Shown here one piece after another: positions 7,747 to 51,728 of a DNA stretch of 64,000 nt (the first letter of the stretch is position 1; every line of letters begins with the position of its first letter). The notes beneath the pieces are model-generated. The model had not been told where the DNA came from, ran no database searches, and worked only from the letters and a program-made list of their open reading frames with translations. Source of the stretch: Clostridia bacterium (GTDB lineage: Bacteria; Bacillota; Clostridia; CAKSNL01; HGM11501); contig JAZQAZ010000010.1 in NCBI GenBank assembly GCA_045545475.1, positions 96,001 through 160,000 on the forward strand, written 5' to 3'. Both the position numbers and the translations under genes were made by a program.

Positions 7747-7775
7747 TTGAATTCTTTATTCGTTTGTGGTACAAT
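7747..7775 (+). promoter_or_regulatory. Sigma-A promoter of the RNase III gene
   Basis: TTGAAT-17 bp-(TG)TACAAT, extended -10. Confidence 0.65.
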
Positions 7776-9327: not shown

Positions 9328-9495
9328 TAGAGGTGGCGCTGTTGAGTTGAAAAAGTCCTTTTTTACATTGGCAAAAAACAAATGGACAGCGTCACCTCTA
9401 AATAGGGCGAAAAGCTCTAGAATACGGGGCTTTTCTGCACATACTAAACCAACAAAAATGTGGACAGCAGCACCCTAGGGTAGGAGGTGACGCTG
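9328..9495. repeat. Cluster of 14-bp TAGAGGTGGmGCTr-like motifs in inverted pairs
   Basis: Copies at 9328 (+), 9387 (-), 9465 (-, degenerate), 9482 (+). Confidence 0.7.
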
Positions 9496-12716: not shown

Positions 12717-14144
12717 TTATCCCTCATATTTGATATTTACATATTGAATCAAATCTGTCAGCAATTCGATTACTTTTTTCTGTTGTAAGTCCCATTCTTG
12801 TCTTGCAGACTTTATGTTGATGATTGTTTCATTCTCACGACATTTTTCGTAAAACTTGTCGTCTGCTTGCTTCCACTGTTCATCTGTAACATCTACTTTT
12901 TCTTTTAAACAATCTTTATAAGTTTTAAAAACTTCTTCACCAGAATTATTTAGCGCATGATGAATTATTGAATCGCCTAAATTAATTATACTACATTTAG
13001 TTCCAATGACATCTTGAAGAATATTGTTAGCAAGTTCTGTCATCATTTCATTATTGTTACTTCTTGCTTTTAAATACTTGCCAATCTTTTCAAACAACTT
13101 ATCAACTTCTTGGATTAAAATTTGTGGAGTTTCTAAGTAACGCGTATCTGTCTTTATCCTTCCCCAAACTGCATACTGAGGGAAATTTTGAGATACTCTG
13201 TCTAATGTTTCAAAAAATATCATACTGGGGTATGGATTTGTTGCGAGAACATCGTTTTCTATTTCGCACAATTCATCATACAAAGGTTTGTAGATTAGAT
13301 TTTTTCTTTTAATATGAGTTTGTGCTTTGAGTTGTTTCTTGTTAACATAAATACTGCCTATAAGGGTAAACATACCACCAATAATGGCACCTAATAGTGT
13401 TCCAATAACAGCGATAGTTTCTCCCTTCCAGCTACTGATTTTTTCGATGAAATTGAACTTGCAGAACAAAAATATAATTGCGGCAGTAGCGATCAAGGTA
13501 AAGCATGCGATTATCCATCTTCCATACTTTGCCCAAAACAATTGAACTTTTGGCCTTTTCAAATGACTCACACCTTTCATTATTTTTTGGATCCATTTCC
13601 GAATGTAATTTATAAATCTCTCTTTTAAGGATGGCTTTTTATAGTTTATTTTTTCTATTTCCGTCTGATAGTCTATAATTATCTTTCGTTCCGTTTTCAT
13701 CATCTCATATAAATACATATACGGATGAATTAATGTGGCTGGGAAATTTTCTTCATTTAATGCTCGATTGTAATAATCTTCTCCGTATTTTTCAAGAAGA
13801 TCGTGAATTTCTTTTAATTGATTTTTGTTGCCACGAATCAAATTTAAATTTGACGAAACACCTGCTCGGCAATCGTTTTGCAAAGAACATTGAATATAGT
13901 CTAAAAACAACTCTGCAAAACGAGGATAATATTCAAAATCATTTTTTTCAGTTAGTGAAATCAGTTCTTTTCTAAGTTCAAGTTCAATTTGAAGAAAAGC
14001 TTCTACTGAACCGTTTGAAAATCCTTCTTTAACAAGTAAAGAAGTTTGATGCAGATCTCGCATATCCTTTAGAGTAAACGATTCCGGCATTTTTACATTA
14101 TCAAAACTTCTTTCTTGCAAAGGGGTAGCCACGCAATAGTACAT
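12717..14144 (-). CDS. Hypothetical protein with two central TM helices; possibly a fragment fused to a second gene
   Basis: 475-aa ORF overlapping the helicase 3' end; internal AAAGGTG RBS plus TTG before the TM region. Confidence 0.5.
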   Translation of the reverse strand: MYYCVATPLQERSFDNVKMPESFTLKDMRDLHQTSLLVKEGFSNGSVEAFLQIELELRKELISLTEKNDFEYYPRFAELFLDYIQCSLQNDCRAGVSSNLNLIRGNKNQLKEIHDLLEKYGEDYYNRALNEENFPATLIHPYMYLYEMMKTERKIIIDYQTEIEKINYKKPSLKERFINYIRKWIQKIMKGVSHLKRPKVQLFWAKYGRWIIACFTLIATAAIIFLFCKFNFIEKISSWKGETIAVIGTLLGAIIGGMFTLIGSIYVNKKQLKAQTHIKRKNLIYKPLYDELCEIENDVLATNPYPSMIFFETLDRVSQNFPQYAVWGRIKTDTRYLETPQILIQEVDKLFEKIGKYLKARSNNNEMMTELANNILQDVIGTKCSIINLGDSIIHHALNNSGEEVFKTYKDCLKEKVDVTDEQWKQADDKFYEKCRENETIINIKSARQEWDLQQKKVIELLTDLIQYVNIKYEG

Positions 14145-18683: not shown

Positions 18684-18784
18684 TATGAATCTTCCTTAAA
18701 ATTGAGTACTTGACTTAAATTATACCACACTTATTGTCAATTATCAAGCGTGGCTGTCGATAAATGTCTACTTATGCGAGTAAG

Positions 18785-20566
18785 TTATTTACAAAGATCT
18801 ATATATGCTTTACGTACAATTTGAGCCATTAATTGACGGCGCTTTTCAAGAAATTCAAGATATTCCATATTTTCAAAGTTTTCAGGCAAAGCGTTTTGTT
18901 CGCACGCTTTTTTATAACCTTCATCTCCGAGTTTTTGACGATAAACATTTACATACTCAGCAGGAGGCTTGTCAGAAATATCAATATTGGTGGCATAGTC
19001 CAAGTATGTAAAGTTAGCAAGTTGATTACGATCACGGTCATTAGTATAACCAATCTGTTCCAAATGGTGTTTCGGGAATATGTGATGCTTATCAATAGCA
19101 TTTTTCGTTCCGCTTGATCCGATAATAAAATATTTAGAAACAGGGGTATTACTGAACAACATCGGGTTGTTCAAAACGATTTGTGCAGCTATATAACCGT
19201 TCCAAGCGGGAGAAATTGCGGCAGCACTGTTAAGTTCACTGGGAAGGGTGAGATTGAAGTAATCGTCAGTAAATCTTGTAGAAATAACTCTGTCTATATA
19301 TGCAATAAATTCTTCAGCAGAATTAACATCTCTTAAATCAGCAAACTGATTTTCAACTTCACTTTCTGTAGAACCGGTGTAAAAATATGTAATGGTGCTC
19401 ATAAAGAACCATTTGCTAATACATTTTCTTAAGTTGATTGCGTCAAGTTTGTAATCATATTTAGCTATAAGATACAGCACATAAGAGAAAACAACAGCGT
19501 TAGAAGACGCAATAAGTTTGTTGCTAATATAGCCGGCTTCTCCGACAATGTTGATAAATCCGTGCCAATTATTAAGATTCATAACTTTGTCCAAAGCATC
19601 CTTAAATTTGTCGAGGTTAGCTTGACGTTCTTCTGCAGAAAATTTTCCTGTTTTAAGATTTTTACCACGCAACAGCATATACGCATAACGTAATCTTGCA
19701 CGTCTGAAACCAACACCTACCGCCATTCGAATCAAATGGGAGGGTTCAACTGCTAACAGCGTATTATAAGAAGTATTTTCTGCCGGAATTCTTGATTTTT
19801 CGGAAAACTCGTTTATTCTATCACTCGTTTCATTTTCGTAAACAGAAATCAATGTTTGAATAAAGTTGTTTTCTGTTAATTTCTGACCTCCGGAGTTTAC
19901 TCTTACAAAAATATCAGCAACAGCTTCTTCGTCAGCATTATATTGAATTTCCAGAGTTGGAAGTGAAAAATCTGAAAGATTGAGCAATGCATTTATGTTG
20001 TTTTCTACAGTAATTTCTTCGTCTTCGGTCAGTTCTGGAAGATTCTTTTTCGCTCTACCTTCATTAGCTTCTTTAATGAATTTTCGGCGAAGCGAAATAA
20101 TGTTGTTTTCTTCTTTTGCAAGAAATACCTCACTTATTCGAGAAATCCATTCTGTATCTCGCTCATATGCTGGAGTCCACACTGCAAATTCTCGTGTTAA
20201 AGGGTTGAACGATATTTTTATTTCTTTGTCCGCAAAATTTTTATCTTTGACAACAACCCCATACATTGCAGCAACAAGAGCGGTCAACCGTTGTTGGCCA
20301 TCTATAACTAATTCTTTAGGTTCGTCATGAATTTTTTCGTTTTTACCGATAACATTTTTCTTTGTTTCATAATCAGCCGGCGATTCCCAAATCATAACAT
20401 ATCCGATAGGGTAACCCTTCATCATAGAATCAAAAAGATCTCTTACTTTATTATCTGCCCACACAAAAGGTCTTTGTAAGTCCGGCAAACCTATTCTGCC
20501 TATTCGTACTCCTCTGACCAAGTCATCAACTTTACTAGGTATATTTTTGAATAATTCCGCACCCAT
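18785..20566 (-). CDS. GmrSD-family (DUF262 + HNH/DUF1524-like) type IV restriction endonuclease
   Basis: LPDLQRPFVW, DS, IDGQQRLT, FVRVNSGG; C-terminal DKHHIFP...LANFTYL...TN. Confidence 0.85.
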   Translation of the reverse strand: MGAELFKNIPSKVDDLVRGVRIGRIGLPDLQRPFVWADNKVRDLFDSMMKGYPIGYVMIWESPADYETKKNVIGKNEKIHDEPKELVIDGQQRLTALVAAMYGVVVKDKNFADKEIKISFNPLTREFAVWTPAYERDTEWISRISEVFLAKEENNIISLRRKFIKEANEGRAKKNLPELTEDEEITVENNINALLNLSDFSLPTLEIQYNADEEAVADIFVRVNSGGQKLTENNFIQTLISVYENETSDRINEFSEKSRIPAENTSYNTLLAVEPSHLIRMAVGVGFRRARLRYAYMLLRGKNLKTGKFSAEERQANLDKFKDALDKVMNLNNWHGFINIVGEAGYISNKLIASSNAVVFSYVLYLIAKYDYKLDAINLRKCISKWFFMSTITYFYTGSTESEVENQFADLRDVNSAEEFIAYIDRVISTRFTDDYFNLTLPSELNSAAAISPAWNGYIAAQIVLNNPMLFSNTPVSKYFIIGSSGTKNAIDKHHIFPKHHLEQIGYTNDRDRNQLANFTYLDYATNIDISDKPPAEYVNVYRQKLGDEGYKKACEQNALPENFENMEYLEFLEKRRQLMAQIVRKAYIDLCK

Positions 20567-20568
20567 TT

Positions 20569-21006
20569 TTATTCTCCTATCCTGTTATTACTATACGCTT
20601 CCTTCAACCTATCAATCGCCAACTCTGGACTCATTGTATGGTACATAAGATAAACCACATTCATAGTTTTAGCCGGAGCTTGTTTATAAATTTCTTTACT
20701 GCTTTCGCCGGTATAATAGTTCCAATAGCGATAAATGTATCCGATCCAATAAAGTGCTTCCTTATCGTAGATTTCACCGTTTTTTGTAAGCTTCTCACCG
20801 AACTCATCCTCCATACGTGAAAGAATATACGCTTTGCCTGCCCATTGCACGTGGTGGAATTCTTTGTCCATATCGGCAGATACCTGAGTGGTCATATACA
20901 CCTTGATGAAAGCTTCACTGCTATATCCTCGCTCTGCCGCAAGTTCAAACAGTTGACCTTGTGTATCACATAAAGTGAGTTGTAACGACTTACACATATC
21001 ATTCAC
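20569..21006 (-). CDS. Conserved hypothetical protein resembling the partner gene of DUF3990 toxins
   Basis: LCDTQGQLFE...LYWIGYIYRYW...YHTMSPE..IDRL pattern recalled from such pairs. Confidence 0.5.
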   Translation of the reverse strand: MNDMCKSLQLTLCDTQGQLFELAAERGYSSEAFIKVYMTTQVSADMDKEFHHVQWAGKAYILSRMEDEFGEKLTKNGEIYDKEALYWIGYIYRYWNYYTGESSKEIYKQAPAKTMNVVYLMYHTMSPELAIDRLKEAYSNNRIGE

Positions 21007-21175
21007 CTTTCAAAATCTCGTCAAAGAATTCACTTTCACAACGGTAGTTAATTTCAGTTTTTTCTTTTCTTCTTTCTGAACTCATATCTTTGAAATGCGA
21101 AAATCCCTGGTTGTAAAGTGGTTCTTCTCCAACGCTTTTATATGAGATCACTATAGGAATGTCCTTGATTGTCAT
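20999..21175 (-). pseudogene. 58-aa ORF, possible remnant of the deleted partner gene
   Basis: Manual translation MTIKDIP...EFFDEILKGE*, stop overlapping the next start. Confidence 0.3.
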
Positions 21176-21249
21176 AATTTTTCTCTTAATAAAAAGATAC
21201 TCTAGTGCTCAGTAATTATACTACAATTGATGTCCTATAAAACGGACTG

Positions 21250-22092
21250 TTACTCTCTAAAATAGTCAGAATTGATTTTATATATATTAAATGTCTTGAC
21301 ACTTTCAACGCCAATTCCATATTTAACCATATAATCAGCTAATAACTCGCCATCAATAAGTTTCACGCTTTTTTGCTGTTGCTGAGTTCCAAAAGTCAAA
21401 GCTTCTTTTGTGTATGATGAGGTTGTAATAAATACGCCCTTCTGAATATGACCCATTGCACCAATGAATGCTTGCAATTCTTTTCTGCCGACTTTATTTG
21501 TGCTTGAATTACGCTTAGCTTGTATGTAAATGAGGTCTAATCCTAATTTATCTTCGCTGATAATACCATCAATTCCATTGTCATGCGAACCGCCAGTCAC
21601 AATTCCTGAATTTTTGTCATACCCGTAACCCATTTTTAACAACAATTCCACAACCAGTTATTCGAAAAAATCGGGGTGATTTGACATAATGTTATCCAGC
21701 AACTGTTGTTTTATCTGATGTAGATGCTCATCCAGAGCATTAACAATCTTTTCTTCTGGTAAAAAGTCTGTATTATCATCGTCTATATTTGTAGATTGAT
21801 TTGTGGTTTTCTTAAATTTGTCGCTGTCGCTTACAATAAACTTAAGCTTTTTCCCATCTTTTCCCGAAATCGCAAAGTGTTTAACTGGATATGCAGTAGG
21901 AAACTCAAGACCAATACAATGACGTCTGATTTCACCGTTGACAACACCAACGGGATTTTTTGCACCAAACTTATATAGATTTTTATCAATTATCCTCTGA
22001 TAAATATCAGCAGAAGATAAACCATCGGGCTCATCTTTTAAAACTTCTTTAATTGCTTCGATTATTGTCATAGGGTTCTCCTTCTTTCGCAA
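21250..22092 (-). pseudogene. mrr: Mrr-family restriction endonuclease (N-terminal wHTH) interrupted by an in-frame TAA
   Basis: NHPDFFE*LVVELLLKMGYG in one frame; DNGIDG...YIQAKR...GVFITTS Mrr catalytic domain. Confidence 0.85.
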
Positions 22093-22186
22093 ACACCCAT
22101 ATATCTACAAATTTCGCGCCAATGGGTATATGACCTATGACATGAGGAATAGATATATGTGGCATAATTAAATTAATTCTTTTTTC

Positions 22187-23269
22187 TCAAACCAAAACTT
22201 CCCACTTACCGTAGCGTTTACCACTTTCACGGTGGATATAGTTTTTATTCTGCAGCGATTTCATAATTCGCTTAATTGTTGCAATAGATTTTCCGGTTAC
22301 TTCAACGAGCTCTTGCTGTTTCATCGTCGGGTTCTTTGCAACCAATTCTAAAACGGCAAGTTCTTCTAAAGTACAGTCTAAAGTATCAAATTGATACTTT
22401 GGAACTTTAGAATTGATACTTTGGGAAGCATTTACATCCACAAAATCAACGTGCATATAGCGGTTCTTCAGCTCGTGGTTCGTGCCGAGCAAAAGATTTT
22501 CGAAAAACAATTCCAGAAATTTTGTGGTGGAATGAATCCCTTTTTGCAAATCGTTATAGTTAGCACGAACGAGTGCGTTGCGGAAATACCAAGAGTTTTC
22601 ACGGAACGCATCGTTATTGACACGGAAACCGAAGGTTTTCATATATTTAATCATAAACACGGCGGTGGCTCTTGTATTGCCCTCGCCGAAGGGATGAATC
22701 TGCCAAATGTCCGATGCAAATTTAGCAAGGTGCTTTACCGATGCTTCAACCGACAGCCCCTCATATGAGAACTGCTTTTCGGTGGCAAAATCATAATCCA
22801 AGGTATCTTTTATGCTGTTGAAATCAGCATAGATAACCGTTTCGCCATTCAGTACCCATTCCTTTTTGGAAATGTTATACTGACGAATCTTACCGGCGTG
22901 GTCAAATACACCCTCAAACAATCTGCGGTGAATGGTAATCCACTCGGCAGGAGAAAACTGAAACGCTTTTTCGCCTAAAAGCTTGGTTATTCTTGCAGAA
23001 ACAATATCCGCTTCTTTGGTGTTATCTTCAGCTTCGGTGCGGGTACTTCTCTGCTCATAATAGCTGTAAATACGCTTTTGAGCTTCATCTATGGTGATTT
23101 TACCCTCGATGTGATCCTTTGCAGTATCAAGCAAATATTCAGACGTGTTGAGTCCGTCAACCGCCTGCAAACCAATAGCAGTTTGCCAAGCTTCACTTTT
23201 TTCGGCTCTTTCAGGTTCGCCTTGCTTTATATATTCTTCAAGTTCAAATTGCCAATTCTTATCGGGCAT
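22187..23269 (-). CDS. Fic-family protein with C-terminal wHTH
   Basis: HPFGEGNTRAT Fic motif; C-terminal HTH ending ESGKRYGKWEV. Confidence 0.85.
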   Translation of the reverse strand: MPDKNWQFELEEYIKQGEPERAEKSEAWQTAIGLQAVDGLNTSEYLLDTAKDHIEGKITIDEAQKRIYSYYEQRSTRTEAEDNTKEADIVSARITKLLGEKAFQFSPAEWITIHRRLFEGVFDHAGKIRQYNISKKEWVLNGETVIYADFNSIKDTLDYDFATEKQFSYEGLSVEASVKHLAKFASDIWQIHPFGEGNTRATAVFMIKYMKTFGFRVNNDAFRENSWYFRNALVRANYNDLQKGIHSTTKFLELFFENLLLGTNHELKNRYMHVDFVDVNASQSINSKVPKYQFDTLDCTLEELAVLELVAKNPTMKQQELVEVTGKSIATIKRIMKSLQNKNYIHRESGKRYGKWEVLV

Positions 23270-23298
23270 ATTTGCACCTCATTTCGCTATCATATCTA

Positions 23299-24201
23299 TT
23301 ATTCATTATCCAAAACCCTAAAATAATCATCATATCTCTCGCTGACATACTCAGCAACGAGATTTATCATCGGTTCAGGATCGTTATCTCTGTAGAATGA
23401 ATCAAATGCGTTATAATACCGCTTTCGGTCGGCAAATTTTACGTTGATTGCCGGATAACCGTGTCTTATAAGCTCAAGATTCATAATCAAGCGGCCTGTT
23501 CTTCCGTTACCGTCAACAAAGGGGTGAATGCCCTCGAATTCAAGATGGAACAACGCAATACGCTCAATGGTGCTCATTTCTGCCTTGCGTTCTTCGTTTT
23601 TTAAGAGCAGTTCAGTCATTTTGGGTTCAATCAAATAGGGCTGCACCGGCTCTGTAAAAGCTCCCATAATACGCACGGGAATGCGGCGATACACACCCTT
23701 ATCCTCTGGCTGATTCATCAACACAAGGGAATGAATGGCTTTTATGGCTGACTCGTTTAACGGCACATCCTTAGTAGCAATGTCCGTAACATACAGAAAA
23801 GCATCACGGTGTCCGACTGCTTCAAGGTGGTCTTTCAGCGGCTTTTGATCGACAGTCATTCCTTCAAGAACCATTGCGGTTTCCTTCAAGGTAAGCGTGT
23901 TTCCTTCGATTGCGTTTGAGTTATAAGTATACTCTATCATAAACTCTTGGCGGAGACGGTTTAACTCACCCTGTGTAAGAGGACGCATTGCATTAAGACG
24001 TTCTTTTTTGTATTCTATTTCTGCAATTATATTAGTCTTTGACAATCTGCCGTCCATGGGCTTAACTGCCGTTTCGGGAATCATATAGAGTTTTCCCTTG
24101 CGTATAACGCCCTCCACCTTGCCTTCGGCACACAATGTACGCACACGGCGAGGTGAAATTCCCCATTTTTCAGCAGCTTTTGATACCTTAATATATTCCA
24201 T
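23299..24201 (-). CDS. Fic-family protein with N-terminal HTH and autoinhibitory SNAIEGN motif
   Basis: HPFVDGNGRTGR; SNAIEGN; GAGGAGG RBS before MEYIK. Confidence 0.9.
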   Translation of the reverse strand: MEYIKVSKAAEKWGISPRRVRTLCAEGKVEGVIRKGKLYMIPETAVKPMDGRLSKTNIIAEIEYKKERLNAMRPLTQGELNRLRQEFMIEYTYNSNAIEGNTLTLKETAMVLEGMTVDQKPLKDHLEAVGHRDAFLYVTDIATKDVPLNESAIKAIHSLVLMNQPEDKGVYRRIPVRIMGAFTEPVQPYLIEPKMTELLLKNEERKAEMSTIERIALFHLEFEGIHPFVDGNGRTGRLIMNLELIRHGYPAINVKFADRKRYYNAFDSFYRDNDPEPMINLVAEYVSERYDDYFRVLDNE

Positions 24202-24457
24202 TAGAGTTGCCTCCTCAGTTAATACAATACTACAAAATACATTATACACCATTTTGGGAATATTGTCAAGGTTGACTGAAAATGTTTACAACTGTTTTGT
24301 TCCCCAAATTGAATTTAAGGGAAGAATGTTTGTACAAGTGAATTGATTTTTGTATTTTGACACTGTTGTAGCATTCATGATAATTGCTACAGCGTAGCAC
24401 CAAATATAATGAAGAAAAGCCTTGAATGTAATAACTTTCAGGGCATTTCTTATGGTC

Positions 24458-42324: not shown

Positions 42325-43378
42325 ATTCTGTAACTCTTGGAACATCCAACCATACTCCGCCTTTTTTTGCGGCTTCATGGGCTATTAATCCGGGAATGGT
42401 CATATCCATTCCTTTTACAATGTCGATGGGGGGAGTTTTGTTATCTTCAATTGATTTAAGGAAATCTCTTACAAGGAAATATTCGCTTGTGCCGTGAGAG
42501 CCAAGAGGAATATCTGTGATACCGGGGGCAGAAGTGGCTATGTCGATTTCTATGCCTTCTTCTGGATCTTCGCCTGCGAAATAGCGTCTTCCTTTACCCT
42601 TATATCCCATTCTGCTGCTTTCCATAAAGCCTTCGGTTCCGATTATGTTATATGTACAAAGGGCGGGGTGACGAAGAGCAACGGAGCTTCTCGCCATTTT
42701 AATTGTTGCACCCTTTGCGGTTTCAAAAAGAGCCACCTGTATGTCTATATTTCCGTCGGTTGCAACGGGGAAGCTTCGTGACTCTGTTCCTGATGCTGTA
42801 CATCTTACAATGTGGTCGTCCATCCACATAAGAATGGGGCCTAAGCTGTGGGAGCAATAGTGAAGCGGTGCACGGTTTGCACGCCACTTTCCGTCAACGA
42901 GGCTTCTTATTTCGTGAACATAGTCTGCCTCTGCGTAGAAGGGAGTTCCGATTTTGCCTGCCTTTATATTCTTATCCCATTCCAGGGCAAACTGCATATA
43001 GCAGCAGTTTTCTGCCAGCATAAATTTGGCTTTTGACTTTCTTACCGCATCAACCATTTTAATACAGCTTTCAACTGAATCTGATGCAGTAACTTCACAA
43101 AGCACGTGTTTTCCTGCTTCCAAGGCTTTTATGGATTGCTCCGCATGGAAGGGAATGGGAGTACCGATTACGACAATGTTAGCATCGGTGTTTAATATAT
43201 CATCATATTCTGTGAACAGTGCAGTATCAGGCAAGTTGAATTCCTTGCCGTTCTTCTCTAAAGAGGCACTATCCATATCGCATAGAGCGACAACTTCGGT
43301 GTCAGGATGGTTTGAAAATATGTGACCGTAAGCGGTTCCACGTCCAACGCCAACCATGGCTACCTTATACTTTTTCAT
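42323..43378 (-). CDS. Gfo/Idh/MocA family oxidoreductase
   Basis: VGVGRG Rossmann motif; TPIPFH; GKHVLCEV; AEN. Confidence 0.85.
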   Translation of the reverse strand: MKKYKVAMVGVGRGTAYGHIFSNHPDTEVVALCDMDSASLEKNGKEFNLPDTALFTEYDDILNTDANIVVIGTPIPFHAEQSIKALEAGKHVLCEVTASDSVESCIKMVDAVRKSKAKFMLAENCCYMQFALEWDKNIKAGKIGTPFYAEADYVHEIRSLVDGKWRANRAPLHYCSHSLGPILMWMDDHIVRCTASGTESRSFPVATDGNIDIQVALFETAKGATIKMARSSVALRHPALCTYNIIGTEGFMESSRMGYKGKGRRYFAGEDPEEGIEIDIATSAPGITDIPLGSHGTSEYFLVRDFLKSIEDNKTPPIDIVKGMDMTIPGLIAHEAAKKGGVWLDVPRVTE

Positions 43379-43480
43379 TAAATCATCTCCTTTTATAACA
43401 TAATAACATGTTTTTGTTGACTTGTTAATGCAATTATGTTAGAATTTACATGTAAAATGTTGAGTAAACGGAGAGAGGAT

Positions 43481-44314
43481 ATGAAGAAAGTAAAGTCGGT
43501 CAAGGAGTTTGATATATCTTTGCGAAACTGCGGAAAAGACAGATATATTGCCAAAGGACATGTATTCGGGCCGATAATAAGCGGAGATTATATAATGCAG
43601 TACTGTTTTGCGGGATGCGGAGTTTTCAAAGTGGATGGAAAAAGCTTTCCTGTAAAAAAGGGAGAATGCATGGTAACATTTCCCGGACAGCAAAGAATCG
43701 AAACAGCGGATGAAGAAACTCCATGGAGGCACATATGGTTAAGCTTTGAAGGGGAAAGTGCAAGACGATTTTTTTCCCTGCTTGGTACAAAAAATGAAAA
43801 TCCGGTAATCTCATTTTTCGGACACTCTAAGATACCCTATCTTATGGAAAACATAATTGAGCTTTCTGAAAACACAGAACCAGGAGGAGAGTTTATACTT
43901 GCATCCAAGCTTTATGAGTTCCTTGACGAGTGTATAAAAGCAAGAAGCAATAACGAAGGCTCTCTTAAAGCAAAGGATATGTATGTTTCACATGCAATAA
44001 ATTATCTTGAACTTCATTTTACGGAGTTTGACATAAGAGTTGAGAAACTTGCAGAACATATAGGTATCGACAGAAGCTATTTTTATGGGATATTTAAGGA
44101 AATAACGGGGGTATCACCAAAAGAATATCTTACGGAATTAAGAATGAAAAAGGCATCTGAGCTTCTTAAAATCCCGGGAGCAACGGTAACTAACGTAGCC
44201 TATTCCGTAGGCTATGAGCCTTCGGTTTTCACTAAGGCATTTAAGAATTATTATGGAATTAATCCTTCGGAATGCATAGAAAAGACGGTTAAAGGAGACG
44301 GAATTTATGGATAA
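43481..44314 (+). CDS. AraC family regulator (cupin sensor)
   Basis: GIDRSYF..FK..TGVSP; VAYSVGY..FTKAFK..YGINP. Confidence 0.9.
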   Translation: MKKVKSVKEFDISLRNCGKDRYIAKGHVFGPIISGDYIMQYCFAGCGVFKVDGKSFPVKKGECMVTFPGQQRIETADEETPWRHIWLSFEGESARRFFSLLGTKNENPVISFFGHSKIPYLMENIIELSENTEPGGEFILASKLYEFLDECIKARSNNEGSLKAKDMYVSHAINYLELHFTEFDIRVEKLAEHIGIDRSYFYGIFKEITGVSPKEYLTELRMKKASELLKIPGATVTNVAYSVGYEPSVFTKAFKNYYGINPSECIEKTVKGDGIYG

Positions 44315-45503
44315 AAAAATATGGAAATATATGATGGATAACTTATTTTCGGATGAAACTAAGCTTTTTTACGATTACATAGTGCCTGAAAAACGGGGAG
44401 ATTTTAAAAACTACCTTCCTTCGCCTGAGTTTATAAAGAAGTGCATCCCCAGTCCTACCGGCTGGGGAACCGGCATGGAGGACTCGGTAATTAACGGAAG
44501 TGTTATGCTGGATTCGGCACTTCTTGCTTACGAAGTAACAAAGGAAGAAGCTTTTTTAGTTAAGGCAAGGGATTTTTTTAAGGGGCTTAAGCTTTGTGCA
44601 ACAATATCTGAAAGCGAAGGATTTCTTGCAAGAAGTGTTTCGCCATTTGACGGAAAAAGCCACTATATTGACTCTTCCAGAGATCAGTATACCCATTATG
44701 TAGCATCCGCAGCAAAATATTACGAAAGCGGAAAAGCGAAGGAGGACGAAATAAAAGCAATAAAGGAAACACTTTTATCATTTGCACGTCGGGCAAGAGC
44801 CAATGTAACTGAAGAAAATAAATGGAATATGCTTCGTGAAGACGGAGGGCAGGGCTTTGTTACAGCACTCTGGAATGCAGCACCCCACGAAATGATGCGC
44901 CTTCCCATGATTTATCTTGCGGCATGGAAAATTTCAGGTGACGAAAGCTTTAAGGAAGATTACTTAAAATACAGAGATTTGGGAATGGATGAATCGGAAA
45001 AGATTGTATACCGGGATAATATGCGTCCCTTTGCCTTTGGTCAGATGCAGCTTTCATTAAGATTCTGCTATGATTATGATGAGGATTCGGCTTTTCGTGA
45101 AAGATGCTATAAGCTAATGAAGCAAAACGCCGATTACGGATTTAATAAAGTATTGGAATGTGCGAAAGAAAATCTTACGGAAGAAAACAGAGAAATTATA
45201 CATACAAAGGCAACTGCGTGGAATGAAACTCCTGCATGGTTTAACGGCTATTTATCGGATTATGCCTACTATGTCCCCATGCACTTTAAGTCTCTTTTTG
45301 CCGCCGGATTGAAGGGGGCGTGGCATATAAGAGATATTGGAGATGCCGCATCAATTTACATGAATTTACCCGGTGCAGAATATAAAAAAGAACTTTTTGA
45401 TGCACTTTCAGCTGCGATTGGATATGTTGATACGGAAAAATATACATCGGATGCAGTGTGCTACCTTTTAACACCCTACTATAAACTTTTGTTGGTAAAA
45501 TAA
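44307..45503 (+). CDS. Hypothetical protein, possibly an alpha/alpha-barrel carbohydrate enzyme
   Basis: 398-aa ORF coupled to AraC; GMED, GFLAR, SSRDQY motifs. Confidence 0.55.
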   Translation: MDKKIWKYMMDNLFSDETKLFYDYIVPEKRGDFKNYLPSPEFIKKCIPSPTGWGTGMEDSVINGSVMLDSALLAYEVTKEEAFLVKARDFFKGLKLCATISESEGFLARSVSPFDGKSHYIDSSRDQYTHYVASAAKYYESGKAKEDEIKAIKETLLSFARRARANVTEENKWNMLREDGGQGFVTALWNAAPHEMMRLPMIYLAAWKISGDESFKEDYLKYRDLGMDESEKIVYRDNMRPFAFGQMQLSLRFCYDYDEDSAFRERCYKLMKQNADYGFNKVLECAKENLTEENREIIHTKATAWNETPAWFNGYLSDYAYYVPMHFKSLFAAGLKGAWHIRDIGDAASIYMNLPGAEYKKELFDALSAAIGYVDTEKYTSDAVCYLLTPYYKLLLVK

Positions 45504-45506
45504 ATA

Positions 45507-45535
45507 TTGACAAAATTAAAGCATATAGCTATAAT
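45507..45535 (+). promoter_or_regulatory. Consensus sigma-A promoter of the retron
   Basis: TTGACA-17 bp-TATAAT. Confidence 0.85.
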
Positions 45536-45558
45536 ATTGTCACGTTTGTTTATTTTAA

Positions 45559-45733
45559 GCAGAGCATTAGTGTATGTCAAACCTTGTTTGACGCCTCGGG
45601 CGAGTCGCCCCGGGTTACATAAAAATAAAAAAAGTCACTTCGTTCCATCCATGTGGTGCCGCTGTAATATTGCCCACTTCATGGGCCGAAAGTTACAGCT
45701 TACCACAAAAGATTTTCTCATGTTTTGCTCTGC
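45559..45733 (+). ncRNA. Retron msr-msd non-coding RNA
   Basis: Terminal IR GCAGAGCA/TGCTCTGC, TTAG after the 5' arm, two msr hairpins (45576-45592, ~45597-45614), long msd hairpin 45652-45707. Confidence 0.8.
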
Positions 45734-45757
45734 GAAAAGGAAGGAGGAAAGCTTAAT

Positions 45758-46681
45758 ATGATAGTTTATAAGGAGCTTTCCTCCTTAACAACGGATCTCG
45801 GGTTTTCTGCAAGGACGCTTTATTCCGTGGCAAGAAGGGTGAGAAAGCATTACCATGAGGTATCAATTCCAAAAAAAGACGGCACGGAAAGAAAACTTTC
45901 TGTTCCGGACGAGCTTCTAAAAAGAATACAGCGGAGAATTGCGGAAAAAATCCTCATGTACGAAGACATATCACCTTACGCCACCGCATACAGAGTTTGT
46001 GCTTCTACTCTTATTAATGCAAAGGCACATCTTGACAAAAAGTGTATATTAAAGCTTGATATAAATCACTTCTTTGATTCCATAATCTTCCCGGTGGTAA
46101 AAAATAAGGTTTTCACCGAGGAAAAATATTCCTATGCCAACAGAATATTGCTTACGGCTCTTTGCATTTATGAGGATTCTGTTCCTCAGGGTGCACCTAC
46201 TTCGCCTGTTATATCTAATATAATTTTAAGGGAGTTTGATTTTCATATGGGCTCTTGGTGCAGTGAGCGTGGAATTACATACACCAGATACTGCGACGAT
46301 ATGACTTTTTCGGGAGAATTTGAAGCCGGAGAGGTTATTAAAGAGGTTGAGGATGCACTTGCAAAAGAAGGTTTTTACTTAAACAGGAAAAAGACGGCTT
46401 TTCTTAAAGATGGGCAAAGGAAGGAAGTTACCGGAATAGTTGTTAATGACAAAGTATCCGTTCCTAAGGAGTATCGCAGAAAAATACGGAGTGAAGTTCA
46501 TTATATCAAAAAATTCGGAATTGACTCCCATCTTTCTCATATAGGCTGTAACACGGATAAAGTGAAATATCTTATGAGTCTTTTTGGAAAAATCAACTAT
46601 GCTCTTTCGGTTTCTCCTGATAATGCAGAAATGAAAAATTGTAAAAAAATAATAGGGAAAATATTATATAAGCTTAAATAA
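45758..46681 (+). CDS. Retron-type reverse transcriptase
   Basis: IPKKDG..R, NAKAH (region X), LKLDINHFFDSI, PQGAPTSP, TRYCDD, VTG (region Y); AAGGAGG RBS. Confidence 0.92.
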   Translation: MIVYKELSSLTTDLGFSARTLYSVARRVRKHYHEVSIPKKDGTERKLSVPDELLKRIQRRIAEKILMYEDISPYATAYRVCASTLINAKAHLDKKCILKLDINHFFDSIIFPVVKNKVFTEEKYSYANRILLTALCIYEDSVPQGAPTSPVISNIILREFDFHMGSWCSERGITYTRYCDDMTFSGEFEAGEVIKEVEDALAKEGFYLNRKKTAFLKDGQRKEVTGIVVNDKVSVPKEYRRKIRSEVHYIKKFGIDSHLSHIGCNTDKVKYLMSLFGKINYALSVSPDNAEMKNCKKIIGKILYKLK

Positions 46682-46705
46682 GCGGATGCATTTGCATTCG
46701 CTTAT
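46680..46705 (+). terminator. Hairpin after retron RT
   Basis: AAGCGGATGCA-tt-TGCATTCGCTT. Confidence 0.55.
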
Positions 46706-46802
46706 TAATTTTAAAAGTGAACTATATTACCAAATTTTGCAATATAAGGCGTTGACTTGGAATTTACATCGTGTTAAAATGTAACCTAAGGAGGCGTTTT
46801 TT

Positions 46803-47717
46803 ATGAAACTTGCAACAACACTTGGCGATTTCAGAGGATACTGCAATACTTATGAAGAAAGGGTGAAGCATGTATGCGAAGCAGGATTTTTATATCTTGA
46901 CCTTGATTTGTATACGGCAGACAAAAATGATGCACTTTTAGTAAGCGACAACTGGAAGGAAAATGCAAAAAGCTTAAAGTCTTATGCAGAAAGCCTTGGA
47001 GCCACCTTTATTCAGGCGCATTCTCCCGGAGGAAACCCGCTTGAGAAAGGAGAAAAGTTTGATTATCTGCTTAAAACTACAATCCGCTCCATTGAAGTCT
47101 GCGGTGAAATGGGAATAAAGAATACGGTTGTTCACGCAGGGATGCTTAAGGAAATTTCCAAAGAAGAGTATTTTGAAAGGAACAGAGAATTTTTCAGAAA
47201 GCTTATCCCCACAATGGAAAAATGCGGTGTAAACGTGCTTTGCGAAAACAGCACAAAGGCAAATATGGGCGGGATGTATTTTACCAACAGTGGAAGCGAT
47301 ATGCTTGAATTTGTAAAATATGTTGACCATCCGCTTTTCCACGCCTGCTGGGACACAGGACATGCCAACTGCGAAGGAAATCAGTATGACGAAATTATGA
47401 CCTTGGGTGATGAGCTTTACGCCCTTCATGTACACGATAACAGCGGACACAGAGACGAGCATCTTATCCCATATTGCGGAACAATTAATATGGATGATGT
47501 TATGCACGCCCTTATCGATTCGGGTTATAAGGGATATTTTACGTTTGAGGCATCAAGCTGTCTTCGTCACAGCAGATACTGGCTCGGAAACAGACGCGTA
47601 TTTGAAAAAGATACAAGGCTTTTAGAACCTCAGCTCTTTATGCAAAAGCAGCTTGAAAAGCTGATGTTTGACACAGGTAAATACATTCTTGAAAAATATA
47701 ATTTATATGAGGAGTAA
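46803..47717 (+). CDS. Sugar phosphate isomerase/epimerase (xylose-isomerase-like TIM barrel)
   Basis: VVH, LCEN, WDTGHAN, LHVHDN...HL, FTFE; own promoter TTGACT-17-TAAAAT. Confidence 0.85.
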   Translation: MKLATTLGDFRGYCNTYEERVKHVCEAGFLYLDLDLYTADKNDALLVSDNWKENAKSLKSYAESLGATFIQAHSPGGNPLEKGEKFDYLLKTTIRSIEVCGEMGIKNTVVHAGMLKEISKEEYFERNREFFRKLIPTMEKCGVNVLCENSTKANMGGMYFTNSGSDMLEFVKYVDHPLFHACWDTGHANCEGNQYDEIMTLGDELYALHVHDNSGHRDEHLIPYCGTINMDDVMHALIDSGYKGYFTFEASSCLRHSRYWLGNRRVFEKDTRLLEPQLFMQKQLEKLMFDTGKYILEKYNLYEE

Positions 47718-47721
47718 CATT

Positions 47722-48828
47722 ATGGAAAACAAAATAAACATAGTAATCGAAGAATCCATGCCCACAGCCTTTTTAAACAAGGACAGAATTTATCAGGACG
47801 GAACAACACCTATGTACCGTGATAAGGACGGCAGCCTCTGGGCAATGAGCGGTCACTCTCATATGGGTGAAATTGCAATGTTTAAGGGAACTAGCCTTGA
47901 CGATATAAAAAAGGCATACGCCATAAACCTTAACTTCTGTGTGGGACACGCAGATTTTGCCTTTGACGGAGTACGCTATCCCGAAGGCGTAAAGGCAAGA
48001 GGAAGCATATGGCCCTTTGGTCTTTATATATGCCCTGTAACACACCGTTTTTTCTGCCTTTTCCATAATGAAACAGGCTGGAACGGTAAAGGCACCGGCT
48101 ATGATGCTGAAGGATTTTGCGACACACCGAAATGCGACTGGGATTTCCGTCATGTAGGTCTTATGCACTCCGACGACGAGGGTAAAAACTGGACCTTTGA
48201 CCGCTGGGTGTTGACCTCAGAAGAGGTTTGCTTTACAGATACTTTTAATCCCGGTGCAGGAAACGTACTTGGTCAGACGGGAGATGTTTTTTCCTGCGGA
48301 AGCGGTGACTTTTCCACTTATATTGACGATGAATATATATACATTTTCTATAACATCATCCGTGCCAACAGAGCAGTTGTAAGCCTTAAAAATGTTGACG
48401 TTTATGTTGCAAGAACAAGACGTCGTGAAGATGGTATAATGGGTGACTTTGTGAAATATTATAACGGTGCATTTACAGAGCCGGGTAACTTCGGAAAGGA
48501 AACTCCCGTTGCATATTGCTCCTGGCATCCCAGGGTAATTTACCTTGAAAAGTACGGAGTTTATTTAATGACCGCATCCTATGCCGATCCTACCGTAACA
48601 GAAAAAATGATAAAGCACGAAACACAGATGCGTATAAGCACGGATTTAGTTAACTGGGGCGAGGTTTACGTTCAGGAATATGAAGGGAAGCCCTTCGGAA
48701 ATCACTATGTGGCATTGGTGTCGGATGATACGGATACACAGCCGAGCTATGCAAAGGGCGACAGAGTTTCCTTCCTTACAAACCATAACGGAACGGACGT
48801 AACACGCTATAAGGCACATATTGAATAA
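47722..48828 (+). CDS. Beta-propeller glycosidase-like protein
   Basis: Asp-box SDDEGKNW and STDLVNW. Confidence 0.55.
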   Translation: MENKINIVIEESMPTAFLNKDRIYQDGTTPMYRDKDGSLWAMSGHSHMGEIAMFKGTSLDDIKKAYAINLNFCVGHADFAFDGVRYPEGVKARGSIWPFGLYICPVTHRFFCLFHNETGWNGKGTGYDAEGFCDTPKCDWDFRHVGLMHSDDEGKNWTFDRWVLTSEEVCFTDTFNPGAGNVLGQTGDVFSCGSGDFSTYIDDEYIYIFYNIIRANRAVVSLKNVDVYVARTRRREDGIMGDFVKYYNGAFTEPGNFGKETPVAYCSWHPRVIYLEKYGVYLMTASYADPTVTEKMIKHETQMRISTDLVNWGEVYVQEYEGKPFGNHYVALVSDDTDTQPSYAKGDRVSFLTNHNGTDVTRYKAHIE

Positions 48829-48839
48829 AAAACTTTACA

Positions 48840-48885
48840 AAAAAGGTATACTGCTGTATAATTTAAGCAGTATACCTTTTTTTTT
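48840..48885 (+). terminator. Terminator hairpin overlapping a promoter
   Basis: AAAAAAGGTATACTGC...GCAGTATACCTTTTTT with TTTACA-17-TATAAT inside. Confidence 0.6.
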
Positions 48886-48899
48886 AAGGAGGCATTAAT

Positions 48900-51728
48900 A
48901 TGGATAAGAAACGCTTTGAAAACCCCGGCAGTGAATACCGCGCAAAACCTTTCTGGTCCTGGAACGGAAAACTTTCAAAGGAAGAGATTATAAGACAGGT
49001 GGATATCCTTCGTGAAATGGGCTTTGGCGGCTATTTCATGCATTCCAGAGTCGGTCTTATTACAGAGTATCTCGGCGATGAGTGGTTTGATATAATAAAC
49101 GCCTGCTCCGAGTACGGTGATAAAGTGGGAATGGAAAACTGGCTTTATGATGAAGACCGCTGGCCCTCCGGCAGTGCAGGCGGAATTGTGACGGAGAATA
49201 AAGAGTATCGTCAGAAGTTTATAAGAATGAATATGAGACTTACGGATAATGCTTTCGCAGCATTTGCTTGTCGCCTTGACGGTGTAAAGGCTTTCGATAT
49301 CGAGCCTTATGACAAGGAAAAAGCAAGCGATAAGGATATAATTTCCTTTGAAATTATTGAAAGACCTACAAGTCCCGAATATAACGGTAATACATATCTT
49401 GACACAATGAAAAAGGAAGCAACTGAAGGCTTCATAAAATCCACCCACGAAAAGTATAAAAAATACTGCGGTGAAAAAATCGGAAACAGTATAAAGGGTA
49501 TATTTACCGATGAACCTCACAGGGGAGAACTTATGATTTCCGTTGTAAGGGACGGTATGGATTATACCAACTGTGCTCCTTATACAGATAATTTCTTTGA
49601 GATTTTTAAAGAGAAATGGGGCTATGATTTAAAGGAACATTTACCGGAATTGTTTTTAAAGAAAGACGGAGAAGATGTTTCCAAAGTTAAATGGCATTAC
49701 TCGGAAACGGCGGCAGCTTTATTCATTGAAAATTTTGTAAAGCCAATAGGCGATTGGTGTCTTGACAATAATCTTATACTTACGGGGCATCTTCTTCATG
49801 AAGATACCTTATCTGCAGGTGCAATTATGGCAGGCTCACTTATGCGTTGTTATGAGCATATGCAGTATCCGGGTGTTGATATTTTAGGACAGAACAGCCA
49901 TTATAACATTGTTAAACAGCTTTCCTCAGTTGCTCATCAGTGCGGAAAGAAGCATCTTTTGTCTGAGCTTTACGGTGCAACCGGCTGGGAAATGAGAATT
50001 GAAGACTATAAAAATATGGGAGACTGGCAATCACTCATGGGAATCGACTTAAGATGCCCGCACCTTTCCTGGTATACAATGATGGGTGAGTGCAAGAGAG
50101 ACTATCCCGCAAGCATATTCTATCAGTCCTCCTGGTATAAGGAGTATAAGCATTTAGAAGACTATTTTGCAAGAATAGCATCCTTCTTAGGTGAGGGAGA
50201 ATCCACGGCGGATGTGCTTGTTATAAGCCCTCTTGAAAGTATGTGGTGTCAGATTTATGCAGGTTGGGGCAAGTGGCTTGAAGCAACAGATCCTGCCTGT
50301 CTTGAGCTTGAAAGAAAATATGCGGATATGTATCGCTTCCTTCTTTCAAACAATGTGGAATTTGATTATGGCGATGAAGAAATGCTTGCAAGAATGGCAA
50401 AAATTGAAAATGGCGTAATCAAGTTCGGTAATGCTGAATATAAAAAGGTAATAGTATCCGGTATGCTCACAATGAGAAGCAGTACGCTTTCGCTGCTTAA
50501 GGAATTTGAGAAAGCGGGAGGAATAGTTGCAGTCGAAGAGCTTCCTTCCTATATTGATGCTGAAAAGGCAGAATTTACATTGGGAAATGCTTCTATGGAA
50601 GATATATTAAAAGACCGCAAACTCATAGCGGATGAACCTTCCGTATTTTCTGCGGTAAAGAAAGAAAAAGACGGAACATACCTTGTTGCACTTCTTAACA
50701 TGGATACAGAGTCAGGTAAAACTTTCAAATGTACTTTCCCGGAAGGAATACTTACCGAGTGGTGTCCTGAAAGCGGAAAAGTGAAAAATGTAAGCTTTAC
50801 GGGCGAAATCACCCTTGAAGCAGGCGAAATGAGGCTTTTTACCGTGGGTAAAGCATTTGAAGCTGAAGCATCAAATGAGGAAAGCCTTCCGGAAATAATG
50901 CTTTCCAATGAATTTACATATAGACTCGATGAACCGAATGTGCTTGTGGTGGAAAAGGCAAAATGCCTTGCAGAAGGCGAAGAATTTGAGGATGATATCC
51001 TCAAAATTGACAGGTATCTCCGAGATAAAGCAGGTATTCCTTACCGTGGCGGAGCAATGTATCAGCCGTGGTACACGGCTAAAAATCCCACAGTAGAATA
51101 TTTCCCCTTTGAACTTACTTATTCCTTTACATCCGAGATTGAAACAGAAGGCTATATCGCCTCAGAATGGGATGAAGCGAAGGTAAACGGAAAGAATGTT
51201 ACTTTTACGGATGACTGGTGGGTTGATCCTTGCTTCAGAAAAGCAAAAATCAAAATCGAAAAGGGAATTAACACCGTTACGGTCAAGGGGATTTATACAG
51301 AAAAGGTAAACCTTGAAGCTATATATATTCTTGGAGACTTTGGCGTATTTGACGGAGTTATAAAAGAAAGTCCTGAAAAAATCACTTATGGTGATATAAC
51401 CAAGCAGGGATTTACGCTTTACGGAGGAAAAATCACATATATTTTCAATCAGAAGGTAGAAAAAAAATCAAGCCTTACCTTAAGCTCTATGGGAAATGCA
51501 TCGGCAATACGCGTAAACGGCAAAGTTCTTGCATGGAAACCTTATAGAGTCGAGGTTGAACCTTGCGATAAAATCGAAATTGAACTTTCGCTTACAAGAA
51601 GAAATACCTTCGGACCTTTGCACAGAGTTCCTTTCAGAAAGGGCGGAGGCCCCGACGGATTTGTTACATACAATAATGCGTGGAGCGACGATTTTATTAC
51701 AATGCCCTGCGGTCTTGAAAAACAATAA
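48900..51728 (+). CDS. GH106-like glycoside hydrolase (alpha-L-rhamnosidase family)
   Basis: PFWSWNG, MHSRVG, WLYDEDRWPSG, FTDEP, SELYG. Confidence 0.75.
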   Translation: MDKKRFENPGSEYRAKPFWSWNGKLSKEEIIRQVDILREMGFGGYFMHSRVGLITEYLGDEWFDIINACSEYGDKVGMENWLYDEDRWPSGSAGGIVTENKEYRQKFIRMNMRLTDNAFAAFACRLDGVKAFDIEPYDKEKASDKDIISFEIIERPTSPEYNGNTYLDTMKKEATEGFIKSTHEKYKKYCGEKIGNSIKGIFTDEPHRGELMISVVRDGMDYTNCAPYTDNFFEIFKEKWGYDLKEHLPELFLKKDGEDVSKVKWHYSETAAALFIENFVKPIGDWCLDNNLILTGHLLHEDTLSAGAIMAGSLMRCYEHMQYPGVDILGQNSHYNIVKQLSSVAHQCGKKHLLSELYGATGWEMRIEDYKNMGDWQSLMGIDLRCPHLSWYTMMGECKRDYPASIFYQSSWYKEYKHLEDYFARIASFLGEGESTADVLVISPLESMWCQIYAGWGKWLEATDPACLELERKYADMYRFLLSNNVEFDYGDEEMLARMAKIENGVIKFGNAEYKKVIVSGMLTMRSSTLSLLKEFEKAGGIVAVEELPSYIDAEKAEFTLGNASMEDILKDRKLIADEPSVFSAVKKEKDGTYLVALLNMDTESGKTFKCTFPEGILTEWCPESGKVKNVSFTGEITLEAGEMRLFTVGKAFEAEASNEESLPEIMLSNEFTYRLDEPNVLVVEKAKCLAEGEEFEDDILKIDRYLRDKAGIPYRGGAMYQPWYTAKNPTVEYFPFELTYSFTSEIETEGYIASEWDEAKVNGKNVTFTDDWWVDPCFRKAKIKIEKGINTVTVKGIYTEKVNLEAIYILGDFGVFDGVIKESPEKITYGDITKQGFTLYGGKITYIFNQKVEKKSSLTLSSMGNASAIRVNGKVLAWKPYRVEVEPCDKIEIELSLTRRNTFGPLHRVPFRKGGGPDGFVTYNNAWSDDFITMPCGLEKQ

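Follow-up and report, generated by a model that had tools for sequence, protein, structure and literature searches.

A predicted two-part Ec107-like retron without a neighbouring effector gene in a sugar-utilisation cluster of a gut Clostridia bacterium

The locus described here lies in a stretch of 64,000 nt from a Clostridia bacterium (NCBI GenBank assembly GCA_045545475.1, contig JAZQAZ010000010.1, positions 96,001 to 160,000 of the forward strand), which as a whole is called the window in the following. A cassette of about 1.2 kb (window 45501-46716) sits there between two genes of a sugar-utilisation cluster, in a spacer of 84 bp, and carries a promoter, an msr-msd RNA, a gene for a reverse transcriptase (RT) and a closing hairpin (Table 1). 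Judged from its sequence and that of its relatives, this cassette is very probably an intact and self-contained two-part retron of the Ec107-like lineage, which has no effector gene in cis and is under selection. Our confidence applies to the identity, the anatomy, the missing cis effector and the evidence for selection, and it covers no single role. A preliminary description of the same DNA had proposed a complete retron with a consensus promoter, a terminal inverted repeat, a candidate branching G, two msr hairpins, a bulged msd stem, a 307-aa RT with NAxxH and VTG motifs but no fused domain, and a closing hairpin, and we found all of these features where it had placed them. It had also described the upstream gene as coupled to an AraC regulator, the downstream isomerase gene as having its own promoter and the RT as having no effector gene next to it, which likewise holds in the analysis below.

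Table 1. Features of the retron cassette, its flanks and the defence island (window coordinates), and of the modules beside related retrons (coordinates of the respective locus).
Feature	Position	Strand	Remarks
TAAAA, left copy	45496-45500	unstranded	5-bp direct repeat at the indel edge, compared with the empty site of G002; overlaps the last codons of the upstream gene
Stop codon TAA of the upstream gene	45501-45503		supplied by the inserted segment
Promoter TTGACA-17-TATAAT	45507-45535	+	12/12 consensus; both hexamers kept in G010 and G003
a1 arm of the terminal inverted repeat, GCAGAGCA	45559-45566	+	compensatory changes in 7/8 a1/a2 pairs among relatives
Candidate branching (priming) G in UUAG, just 3' of a1	45570	+	conservation
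msr hairpin 1	45576-45592	+	fold; 5/5 pairs with compensatory changes
msr hairpin 2, conserved apical GCGAGUCGC	45593-45615	+	compensatory changes in 7/9 stem pairs
msd long bulged stem-loop, predicted msDNA hairpin template	45652-45707	+	fold; 12/12 pairs of the three msd helices compensatory
a2 arm, TGCTCTGC	45726-45733	+	sequence, pairing with a1
GGAGG	45743-45747	+	10 nt upstream of the RT ATG
RT, 307 aa	45758-46681	+	PADLOC RT_Ec107-like; Pfam RVT_1 1.9e-21
RT motif NAKAH	46016-46030		residues 87-91
RT motif YCDD	46289-46300		residues 178-181
RT motif VTG	46427-46435		residues 224-226
Terminator-like hairpin	~46680-46703	+	10-bp stem, T-rich tail; stem kept, loop differs in G010 and G003
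TAAAA, right copy	46712-46716	unstranded	homology with the empty site resumes here
Upstream 398-aa gene	44307-45503		overlaps the AraC ORF by 8 nt
Promoter-like site ahead of the isomerase-like gene	46752-46780		10/12, with TG; conserved in the G002 empty site
Xylose-isomerase-like gene	46803-47717		TIM barrel, weak sugar-epimerase matches
Second conserved sugar-cluster gene	47740-48828		~362-386 aa
PbeA	14101-15966	minus	622 bits
HEC-05-like	18785-20566	minus	
Type IV methyl-directed restriction enzyme fragment	21250-21651	minus	matches the C-terminal third of the profile only
PDC-S72	22187-23269	minus	
PDC-S04/SoFic-like Fic protein	23299-24252	minus	
Module at L016	9230-10854		
Module at L017	1922-8087		
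Module at L034	7-1200		
Module at L036	1316-3756		
Module at L037	854-1579		
Module at L038	4-642		
Module at L040	5381-9125		
Module at L050	4324-6739		
Module at L072	2569-4861		

The listing of open reading frames (ORFs) opens the RT frame at a TTG (45725), but we chose the ATG at 45758 as start because GGAGG lies 10 nt upstream of it and the MI[VI]Y N-termini of homologues match. Among the PADLOC models the RT fits RT_Ec107-like (PDLC03739) best, with an E-value of 8.6e-127 and 420.7 bits over profile positions 7-304 of 307, followed by the RT_III-A models with 332.2 bits and lower, the best of which matches only from position 44 of 341. All of the top 25 models listed, out of 77 matched, describe retron RTs, and the nearest solved structures are retron RTs as well, with Ec86 first (1.5e-31) and none from the Ec107-like clade. 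Pfam recognizes RVT_1 only, and NCBIfam, which holds no Ec107 model, gives 219.9 bits for retron_St85_RT against a cut-off of 235. The generic RVT_1 domain and weak NCBIfam matches to group II RT/maturase (TIGR04416, 70.2 bits against a cut-off of 300), Drt2, Drt3a and Drt4 would fit an RT of another class, be it the remnant of a group II intron, a defence-associated RT (DRT/Abi) or one of a diversity-generating retroelement (DGR), with a fortuitous fold upstream. These matches reach, however, only 26-70 bits against cut-offs of 200-450, the listed PADLOC models and the nearest structures are those of retrons, the NAxxH and VTG motifs are in place and the upstream RNA covaries as an msr-msd closed by a1 and a2, so that another RT class is extremely improbable.

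In an alignment of 12 RTs the residues H91, V224-T225-G226, Y178, D180 and D181 are invariant and N87 is nearly so; NAxxH (region X) and VTG (region Y) are given as retron-defining motifs in the review of Simon et al. (2019). The sequence YCDD occurs in all ten Ec107-like RTs that came from genome searches made with no motif filter, whereas both type III-A RTs show YADD. Membership in the lineage rests on the PADLOC profile, which derives from the clade of Mestre et al. (2020), the RT of Ec107 itself not being part of the alignment. YCDD has also been reported for RT-Eco5/Ec107 (Simon et al. 2019), and the branch of clade 2 with Retron-Eco5 (Ec107) is described by Mestre et al. (2020) as 59 RTs, only two of which are found beside a phosphoribosyltransferase (PRTase). 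There the members are called 'orphan retrons', their branch shares a node with PRTase-linked RTs, and most of their hosts are said to be without homologues of known retron-associated proteins. A survey based on SPIRE (2026, mSystems) lists 192 clade2_Ec107like candidates, 93% from Bacillota and 92% host-associated, and reports the lineage as being without a recurrent accessory module, the largest accessory cluster having n = 8. YCDD and the absent effector are therefore both hallmarks of the published lineage and the locus is not unusual for its kind: it is a new member of the Ec107-like lineage and not a new type of system. In the preliminary description the YCDD in place of the usual YADD and the lack of an effector had both appeared as oddities; neither is one for an orphan retron of this lineage.

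The genome of the window (2.74 Mb, 95% complete, 50 contigs) has one copy of the RT. Related genomes and loci are given below with G and L numbers, respectively. A match to the RT is present in two of the eleven other genomes of the genus and in 13 of the 399 genomes of the class that were scored; the latter count includes the genome of the window, and two further genomes were left unscored.

Upstream of the RT, the segment 45550-45745 folds into an a1/a2 stem, two msr hairpins and a long bulged msd stem-loop with a minimum free energy of -61.1 kcal/mol (z = -3.97), and none of 200 shuffled sequences folds as well. RNAalifold applied to a MAFFT alignment of eight relatives returned 34 pairs, 24 of them with compensatory change. 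The segment from a1 to a2 measures 166-180 nt in eight loci and has the same layout in all of them. In the eight aligned relatives A45569 and G45570 are invariant, the AG ending at G45570 being the candidate primer, and so is the GCGAGTCG of msr hairpin 2, which is the most conserved element of the RNA. The msd sequence is unusually conserved even at about 55% RT identity, where the apical GCCCA/TGGGC stem is still retained. A covariance model was built from the alignment of the eight relatives, and the window itself scores 180 bits on it. Besides the window, 66 of 80 metagenome loci have a match to this model, which lies directly ahead of the RT gene and on its strand. There was none in the two type III-A control loci, in L022 or in L021, in which the upstream sequence is cut off.

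With 59 distinct relatives 93.2% of the cells are paired, compared with 35-45% when the 3' partners are slid, and compensatory changes occur in 31 of the 34 pairs; none of 500 shuffles reaches the observed values. The 59-row alignment was fitted to the covariance model, and its paired fraction therefore leans towards the structure; the compensatory counts in the MAFFT alignment, which is independent of the model, point the same way. An Rfam scan of window 44000-48000 gave only two chance-level minus-strand matches at the RT start, both below the gathering scores, and the published Ec107_like msr/msd model is absent from Rfam. The genome holds one copy of the RNA, and a search of it for a second msd copy or a complementary target returned only matches of 18-22 nt (E >= 0.125).

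Two further observations concern the RNA of relatives. The distance from the RNA to the RT match downstream of it differs inside one RT cluster: it is about 1.07 kb in L098 (1188-1368), L106 and L112 (5744-5934) but only about 130 nt in L099, L100, L101 and L109, which suggests an insertion of about 0.9 kb with small ORFs of 67-161 aa between RNA and RT in the former three. L016 (~8025-8050) and L017 (~9350-9380) share a GTGTCCGTATTTA(T/C)GGACAC hairpin just upstream of the promoter, which may be the upstream edge of a mobile cassette in this sub-group. At the window locus two candidates inside the RNA region were rejected. A promoter-like site on the minus strand (45580-45552, TTGACA-17-TAAAAT, 11/12), located within msr hairpin 1 and directed away from the retron, is probably due to chance because the hexamer is not retained in L016 and L017. 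An 84-aa ORF across the RNA (45507-45761), considered as a hidden peptide, did not cluster with similar small '-1' ORFs elsewhere. The closing hairpin received no flag in the terminator scan.

The extent of the cassette is set by the genome G002, which is 97% complete, has no RT match and shows the two flanks directly joined. In its locus (L032), positions 2858-5380 align with window 43000-45518 and positions 5357-7643 with window 46714-49000, and what is missing from G002 is only ~45501-46716, that is the promoter, the RNA, the RT and the hairpin, bounded by the TAAAA copies. The unit of presence and absence is thus the retron alone. The upstream gene of G002 ends with a TGA, which in the window belongs to the right flank, while the retron-bearing genomes use the TAA supplied by the insert. 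In the two other retron-bearing genomes of the genus, G010 and G003, the retron is found between the same two genes, and its right-hand junction is also the same. The flanks of G002, left and right, group with those of G010 and G003 and not with the window. In the simplest history, the common ancestor of the four genomes already had the retron here, and G002 has since undergone a clean loss or received an empty allele by recombination. In metagenome data, contigs from three separate gut studies bridge both junctions; a joint skipping the retron was not seen in the contigs of four runs, which does not make the empty allele absent there.

The comparison of the three retron-bearing species shows that the cassette is maintained. 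For the RT the synonymous divergence (dS) is 0.75 between the window and G010, 0.98 between the window and G003 and 0.36 between G010 and G003, and it tracks that of the upstream gene (last 148 codons; 0.65, 0.69 and 0.21 for the same pairs). The ratio of nonsynonymous to synonymous divergence (dN/dS) of the RT is 0.12, 0.11 and 0.13. The RNA from a1 to a2 differs by 0.068, 0.069 and 0.028 per site, about ten times more slowly than the synonymous sites of the RT, and the changes in its hairpins among the congeners are few and wobble-compatible. Because of the low dN/dS and the slow divergence of the RNA, RT and RNA are both under purifying selection and the cassette is not a relic. Whichever history applies to G002, selection has preserved an intact cassette of the retron alone in three species, and it follows that the pair of RT and multicopy single-stranded DNA (msDNA) would do something useful without a linked toxin.

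The flanking genes belong, according to Pfam, to a cluster with an AraC regulator, the 398-aa protein that has no recognizable family, the xylose-isomerase-like TIM barrel and a GH106 protein, and none of the eight ORFs scanned around the RT matches a PADLOC model. The preliminary description had allowed for one of the two adjoining genes as a co-occurring effector, and their immediate adjacency on the strand of the RT, together with the failure of the 398-aa protein to match anything in Pfam, PADLOC or NCBIfam, would be in line with this. The 398-aa gene is, however, present without any RT in G002 (88% identity) and G004 (74%), and in G002 the two genes are contiguous with the same internal promoter. 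Neither of them clusters with any neighbour of 87 other Ec107-like loci, the downstream product is an enzyme-like TIM barrel, and both evolve under strong constraint of their own. Neither flanking gene is a retron partner, and an effector role of either is very unlikely. The 398-aa protein and the product of the second conserved sugar-cluster gene, which also lacks a match in Pfam, PADLOC and NCBIfam, are conserved proteins of this cluster, and strong purifying selection acts on both, with a dN/dS in the genus of 0.08-0.17 and 0.04, respectively. In G004 (L033 3918-6465, compared with window 44310-49000) the 398-aa gene is directly followed by a 386-aa gene, the retron and the isomerase-like gene both being missing, so that the sugar cluster itself varies within the genus.

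We then turn to the neighbours of related RTs, for which up to 17.5 kb around nine RT hits outside the genus were retrieved and the RT with its three to four nearest ORFs was scanned against PADLOC and Pfam. Seven of the nine RTs score best on RT_Ec107-like, and the set of neighbours, 24 in total, is a different one at each locus: WYL, Sel1 and AAA proteins at one; AAA, RlaP and RtcB at another; AraC, a nucleoside hydrolase and PBP; an XRE-type helix-turn-helix (HTH) protein and UDP-glucose dehydrogenase; GH2, a DnaC/IstB-like protein and DnaB_2; NAD synthase; and PHO4, PhoU and an amidohydrolase. The other two RTs (L023, L024) score best on RT_III-A and both have PRTase_III-A and WH_III-A immediately upstream, which shows that the method detects effectors when they are present. 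A larger sample came from metagenomes, where relatives were picked out by YCDD and VTG peptide patterns, with a resulting bias towards YCDD; it comprises the best 80 of 571. Clustering of the four ORFs on either side at 88 loci (506 ORFs, 350 clusters) revealed no common partner among the 62 RT clusters formed at 85% identity, the largest family being a generic AraC HTH in 10 of the 62; this number of RT clusters is approximate, as an antisense ORF stands as RT in L035, L038, L066, L079 and L097.

Below this level two small sets of genes recur. A DUF2201 metallopeptidase-VWA protein (5/62 RT clusters) and a MoxR-type AAA protein (4/62) together form what we call module A, and an nSTAND3-like AAA protein and a 580-aa protein (3/62 each) form module B, to which a 289-aa protein is added in L017 and L040. 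A tblastn search with these five proteins was positive at 10 of 90 loci: module A was found in L016, L017, L034, L036, L050 and L072, with a weak MoxR match in L039, and module B in L017, L037, L038 and L040. PADLOC has no retron-effector model for the module proteins and gives for MoxR only weak AAA matches (mad8, IetA, DolB, TRIP13), the 580-aa and 289-aa proteins match no family, and the signature proteins of both modules were not found in the genome of the window. Neither module is named as an accessory of the lineage in the accessible parts of Mestre et al. (2020) or of the SPIRE survey (2026). L017 carries both modules: it has the arrangement of L016, into which module B is inserted so as to separate the retron from module A. 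The downstream AAA ATPases of L016 and L017 had been considered as one shared partner, but in BLASTP the two ORFs are unrelated. In L017 the AAA protein of module B is split into frames of 94 and 284 aa (6952-8087, minus strand), which jointly match the 379-aa protein of L040, probably because of a frameshift or a sequencing error.

The relationship of these loci to the window was analyzed in an RT tree of 66 rows, a quick IQ-TREE search under the PMSF model with RTs taken from the tblastn frame. Branch support is given by the Shimodaira-Hasegawa-like approximate likelihood ratio test (SH-aLRT) only. The window, G010 and G003 form a clade (SH-aLRT 100), which is sister to L034, L039, L036 and L037 (SH-aLRT 90) and belongs with these, with L038 and L040 and with L043, L016 and L017 to a group of 12 rows (SH-aLRT 85). 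A recurring partner in close homologues, for which the preliminary description had asked, is absent across the 88 loci as a whole, while a nucleoside triphosphatase (NTPase) module stands beside seven of the nine nearest RTs from outside the genus. The latter result goes in part against the preliminary description, which had counted an effector regularly adjacent to the homologues as a sign of a deletion remnant.

Several points weigh against the reading as a self-contained two-part retron. The seven rows just mentioned (L016, L017, L034, L036, L037, L038 and L040) lie at most 7 kb from a module, mostly co-directional with the retron, and the partner-less state of the window may therefore be a secondary loss. 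The node supports of 90 and 85 come from the quick search without bootstraps. The TAAAA repeat at the boundaries is short and A/T-rich and possibly a matter of chance, and the junction in G002 is one A short of what a simple deletion between the repeats would leave. The YCDD bias of the metagenome sample counts on the same side. The locus was met in 20 sequencing runs of eight studies, all of them as DNA contigs, with no RNA run among them. Finally, the genome is 95% complete in 50 contigs and the search in trans covered few effector families, so that an unlinked partner could be missed.

Had the lineage once been paired with an adjacent NTPase module, either MoxR-AAA with DUF2201/VWA or the nSTAND3-like AAA with the 580-aa protein, the copy in the window would be what remained of it. 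All ten module loci fall into a 42-row RT clade that holds the window and eight of them, including the weak L039, into the 12-row sub-group; the AAA frame of L016 follows immediately on the stop of the RT, only 13-34 nt separate the end of the module from the RNA in L034 and L036, and the MoxR identities between loci (55-65%) are similar to those of the RTs (47-59%). On the other hand, the arrangement varies between downstream, upstream and convergent, up to the inserted module B of L017, and the near-sister RTs L036 and L037 carry different modules. The DUF2201 protein (E <= 1e-30) occurs in seven of the 399 class genomes; an RT match at E <= 1e-40 is lacking in five of them (G062, G192, G279, G281, G363), and in G395 another contig carries the protein a second time. 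The module proteins also lack a PADLOC retron-effector model, and a retron-only unit has been under purifying selection across dS ~0.4-1.0, with an indel in G002 that holds the retron only. We therefore regard a secondary loss as unlikely. The modules could be unrecognized retron partners or simply neighbours in defence islands, and we take them as a lead, namely as frequent island neighbours or optional add-ons of the sub-group which are candidate partners but not a demonstrated effector.

To our knowledge every functionally characterized retron uses an effector, and an unlinked one encoded in trans might complete a standard three-part abortive-infection retron here too. The sister type III-A uses PRTase and winged-helix proteins, as seen beside both control RTs, the incomplete genome leaves room for such a gene, and the window itself has a defence island at 12717-24252 on the minus strand, 21-31 kb from the retron (Table 1). 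Yet in the whole genome PRTase_III-A yields only a 19-bit match inside a 584-aa frame and WH_III-A none, and the signature proteins of modules A and B are equally absent. The scarcity of known retron-associated homologues in orphan-retron hosts noted by Mestre et al. (2020) points in the same direction, at least for the known families, and unlinked partners of a toxin/antitoxin-like kind would not easily persist while a 1.2-kb cassette is gained and lost. An effector in trans is consequently possible but rather doubtful.

For the two-part retron itself a mode of action can be proposed from general retron biology. The consensus promoter would drive a single transcript that comprises the msr-msd RNA and the RT message and ends at the hairpin behind the RT gene. 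The a1/a2 stem would close the RNA, the RT would presumably dock on the two msr hairpins, prime from the 2'-OH of G45570 and copy the msd leftwards from ~45725. With the whole msd reaching from about the 45620s to 45725, the product should be a branched msDNA of about 100 nt with a long bulged hairpin. As to its role, it is conceivable, though short of probable, that RT and msDNA work with an unlinked host or accessory factor. More tentatively, the complex might act on its own, a decoy or sponge for phage proteins being one example. A physiological role outside defence would be still somewhat less likely, although a rise in expression on starvation has been reported for Ec107 (review of Simon et al. 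2019), and what likelihood is left falls to little or no present function.

Because the retron-only unit is under selection in three species and its msd is unusually conserved, we tentatively suggest the Ec107-like cassette as a self-sufficient two-component system in which RT and msDNA would act without a toxin, be it on phage proteins as a sponge or decoy or on host physiology as a regulator; this remains a doubtful proposal. If it is true, the NTPase modules beside the near relatives would be optional add-ons and perhaps early stages of the recruitment of effectors by retrons. The role of partner-less retrons is a question in the field: literature searches for Retron-Eco5 and for orphan, stand-alone or effector-less retrons returned no reported function for the lineage, and its founding member Ec107 was excluded from the first defence screen, according to the preprint of Millman et al. 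(2020). The locus provides a natural experiment with filled and empty alleles of one site in sister species, the 1.2-kb unit with its own promoter and terminator is easily cloned, there is evidence that selection keeps it without a linked toxin, and the two NTPase modules are flagged as candidate partners that can be tested.

Compared with known retrons, the criterion of a tripartite defence system sets the locus apart, as no effector is fused or adjacent and the indel consists of promoter, RNA, RT and hairpin only. Type III-A (RT, PRTase and winged-helix protein) is the sister RT group with the same overall RT core and 332 bits, but the window has no PRTase or winged-helix gene in cis or elsewhere in the genome, its RT has YCDD instead of YADD and lacks the first ~43 positions of the III-A profile, and the RNA covariance model has no match at the two III-A loci. 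With type I-A (Ec78/Ec83, RT with a Septu-like ATPase and HNH protein) there is a likeness in some near relatives only, where the RNA and the RT stand beside a two-gene module with an ATPase, a layout that recalls retrons co-opting an NTPase defence system. The window has no such module, and those of the relatives consist of MoxR-AAA with DUF2201/VWA or of nSTAND3-like AAA instead of PtuAB. They are at most putatively linked to the retron, and the gene for the DUF2201 protein is also found where there is no retron.

The closest likeness is to Retron-Eco5 (Ec107) and the Ec107-like orphans, which share the best RT model, YCDD, an RT of about 307 aa without a fused domain and an msr-msd directly upstream of it, with no accessory gene at the window locus or in the two congeners. 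A Bacillota host and gut metagenome runs also fit the composition reported for the lineage in the SPIRE survey. In both cases the retron occupies a short spacer between genes, and no mobile element is near it, as far as Ec107 is covered in the review of Simon et al. (2019). The host here differs, being an uncultured gut Clostridia genus and not E. coli, and while Ec107 replaces a 34-bp intergenic palindrome according to the same review, the cassette of the window appears as a pure insertion bounded by TAAAA.

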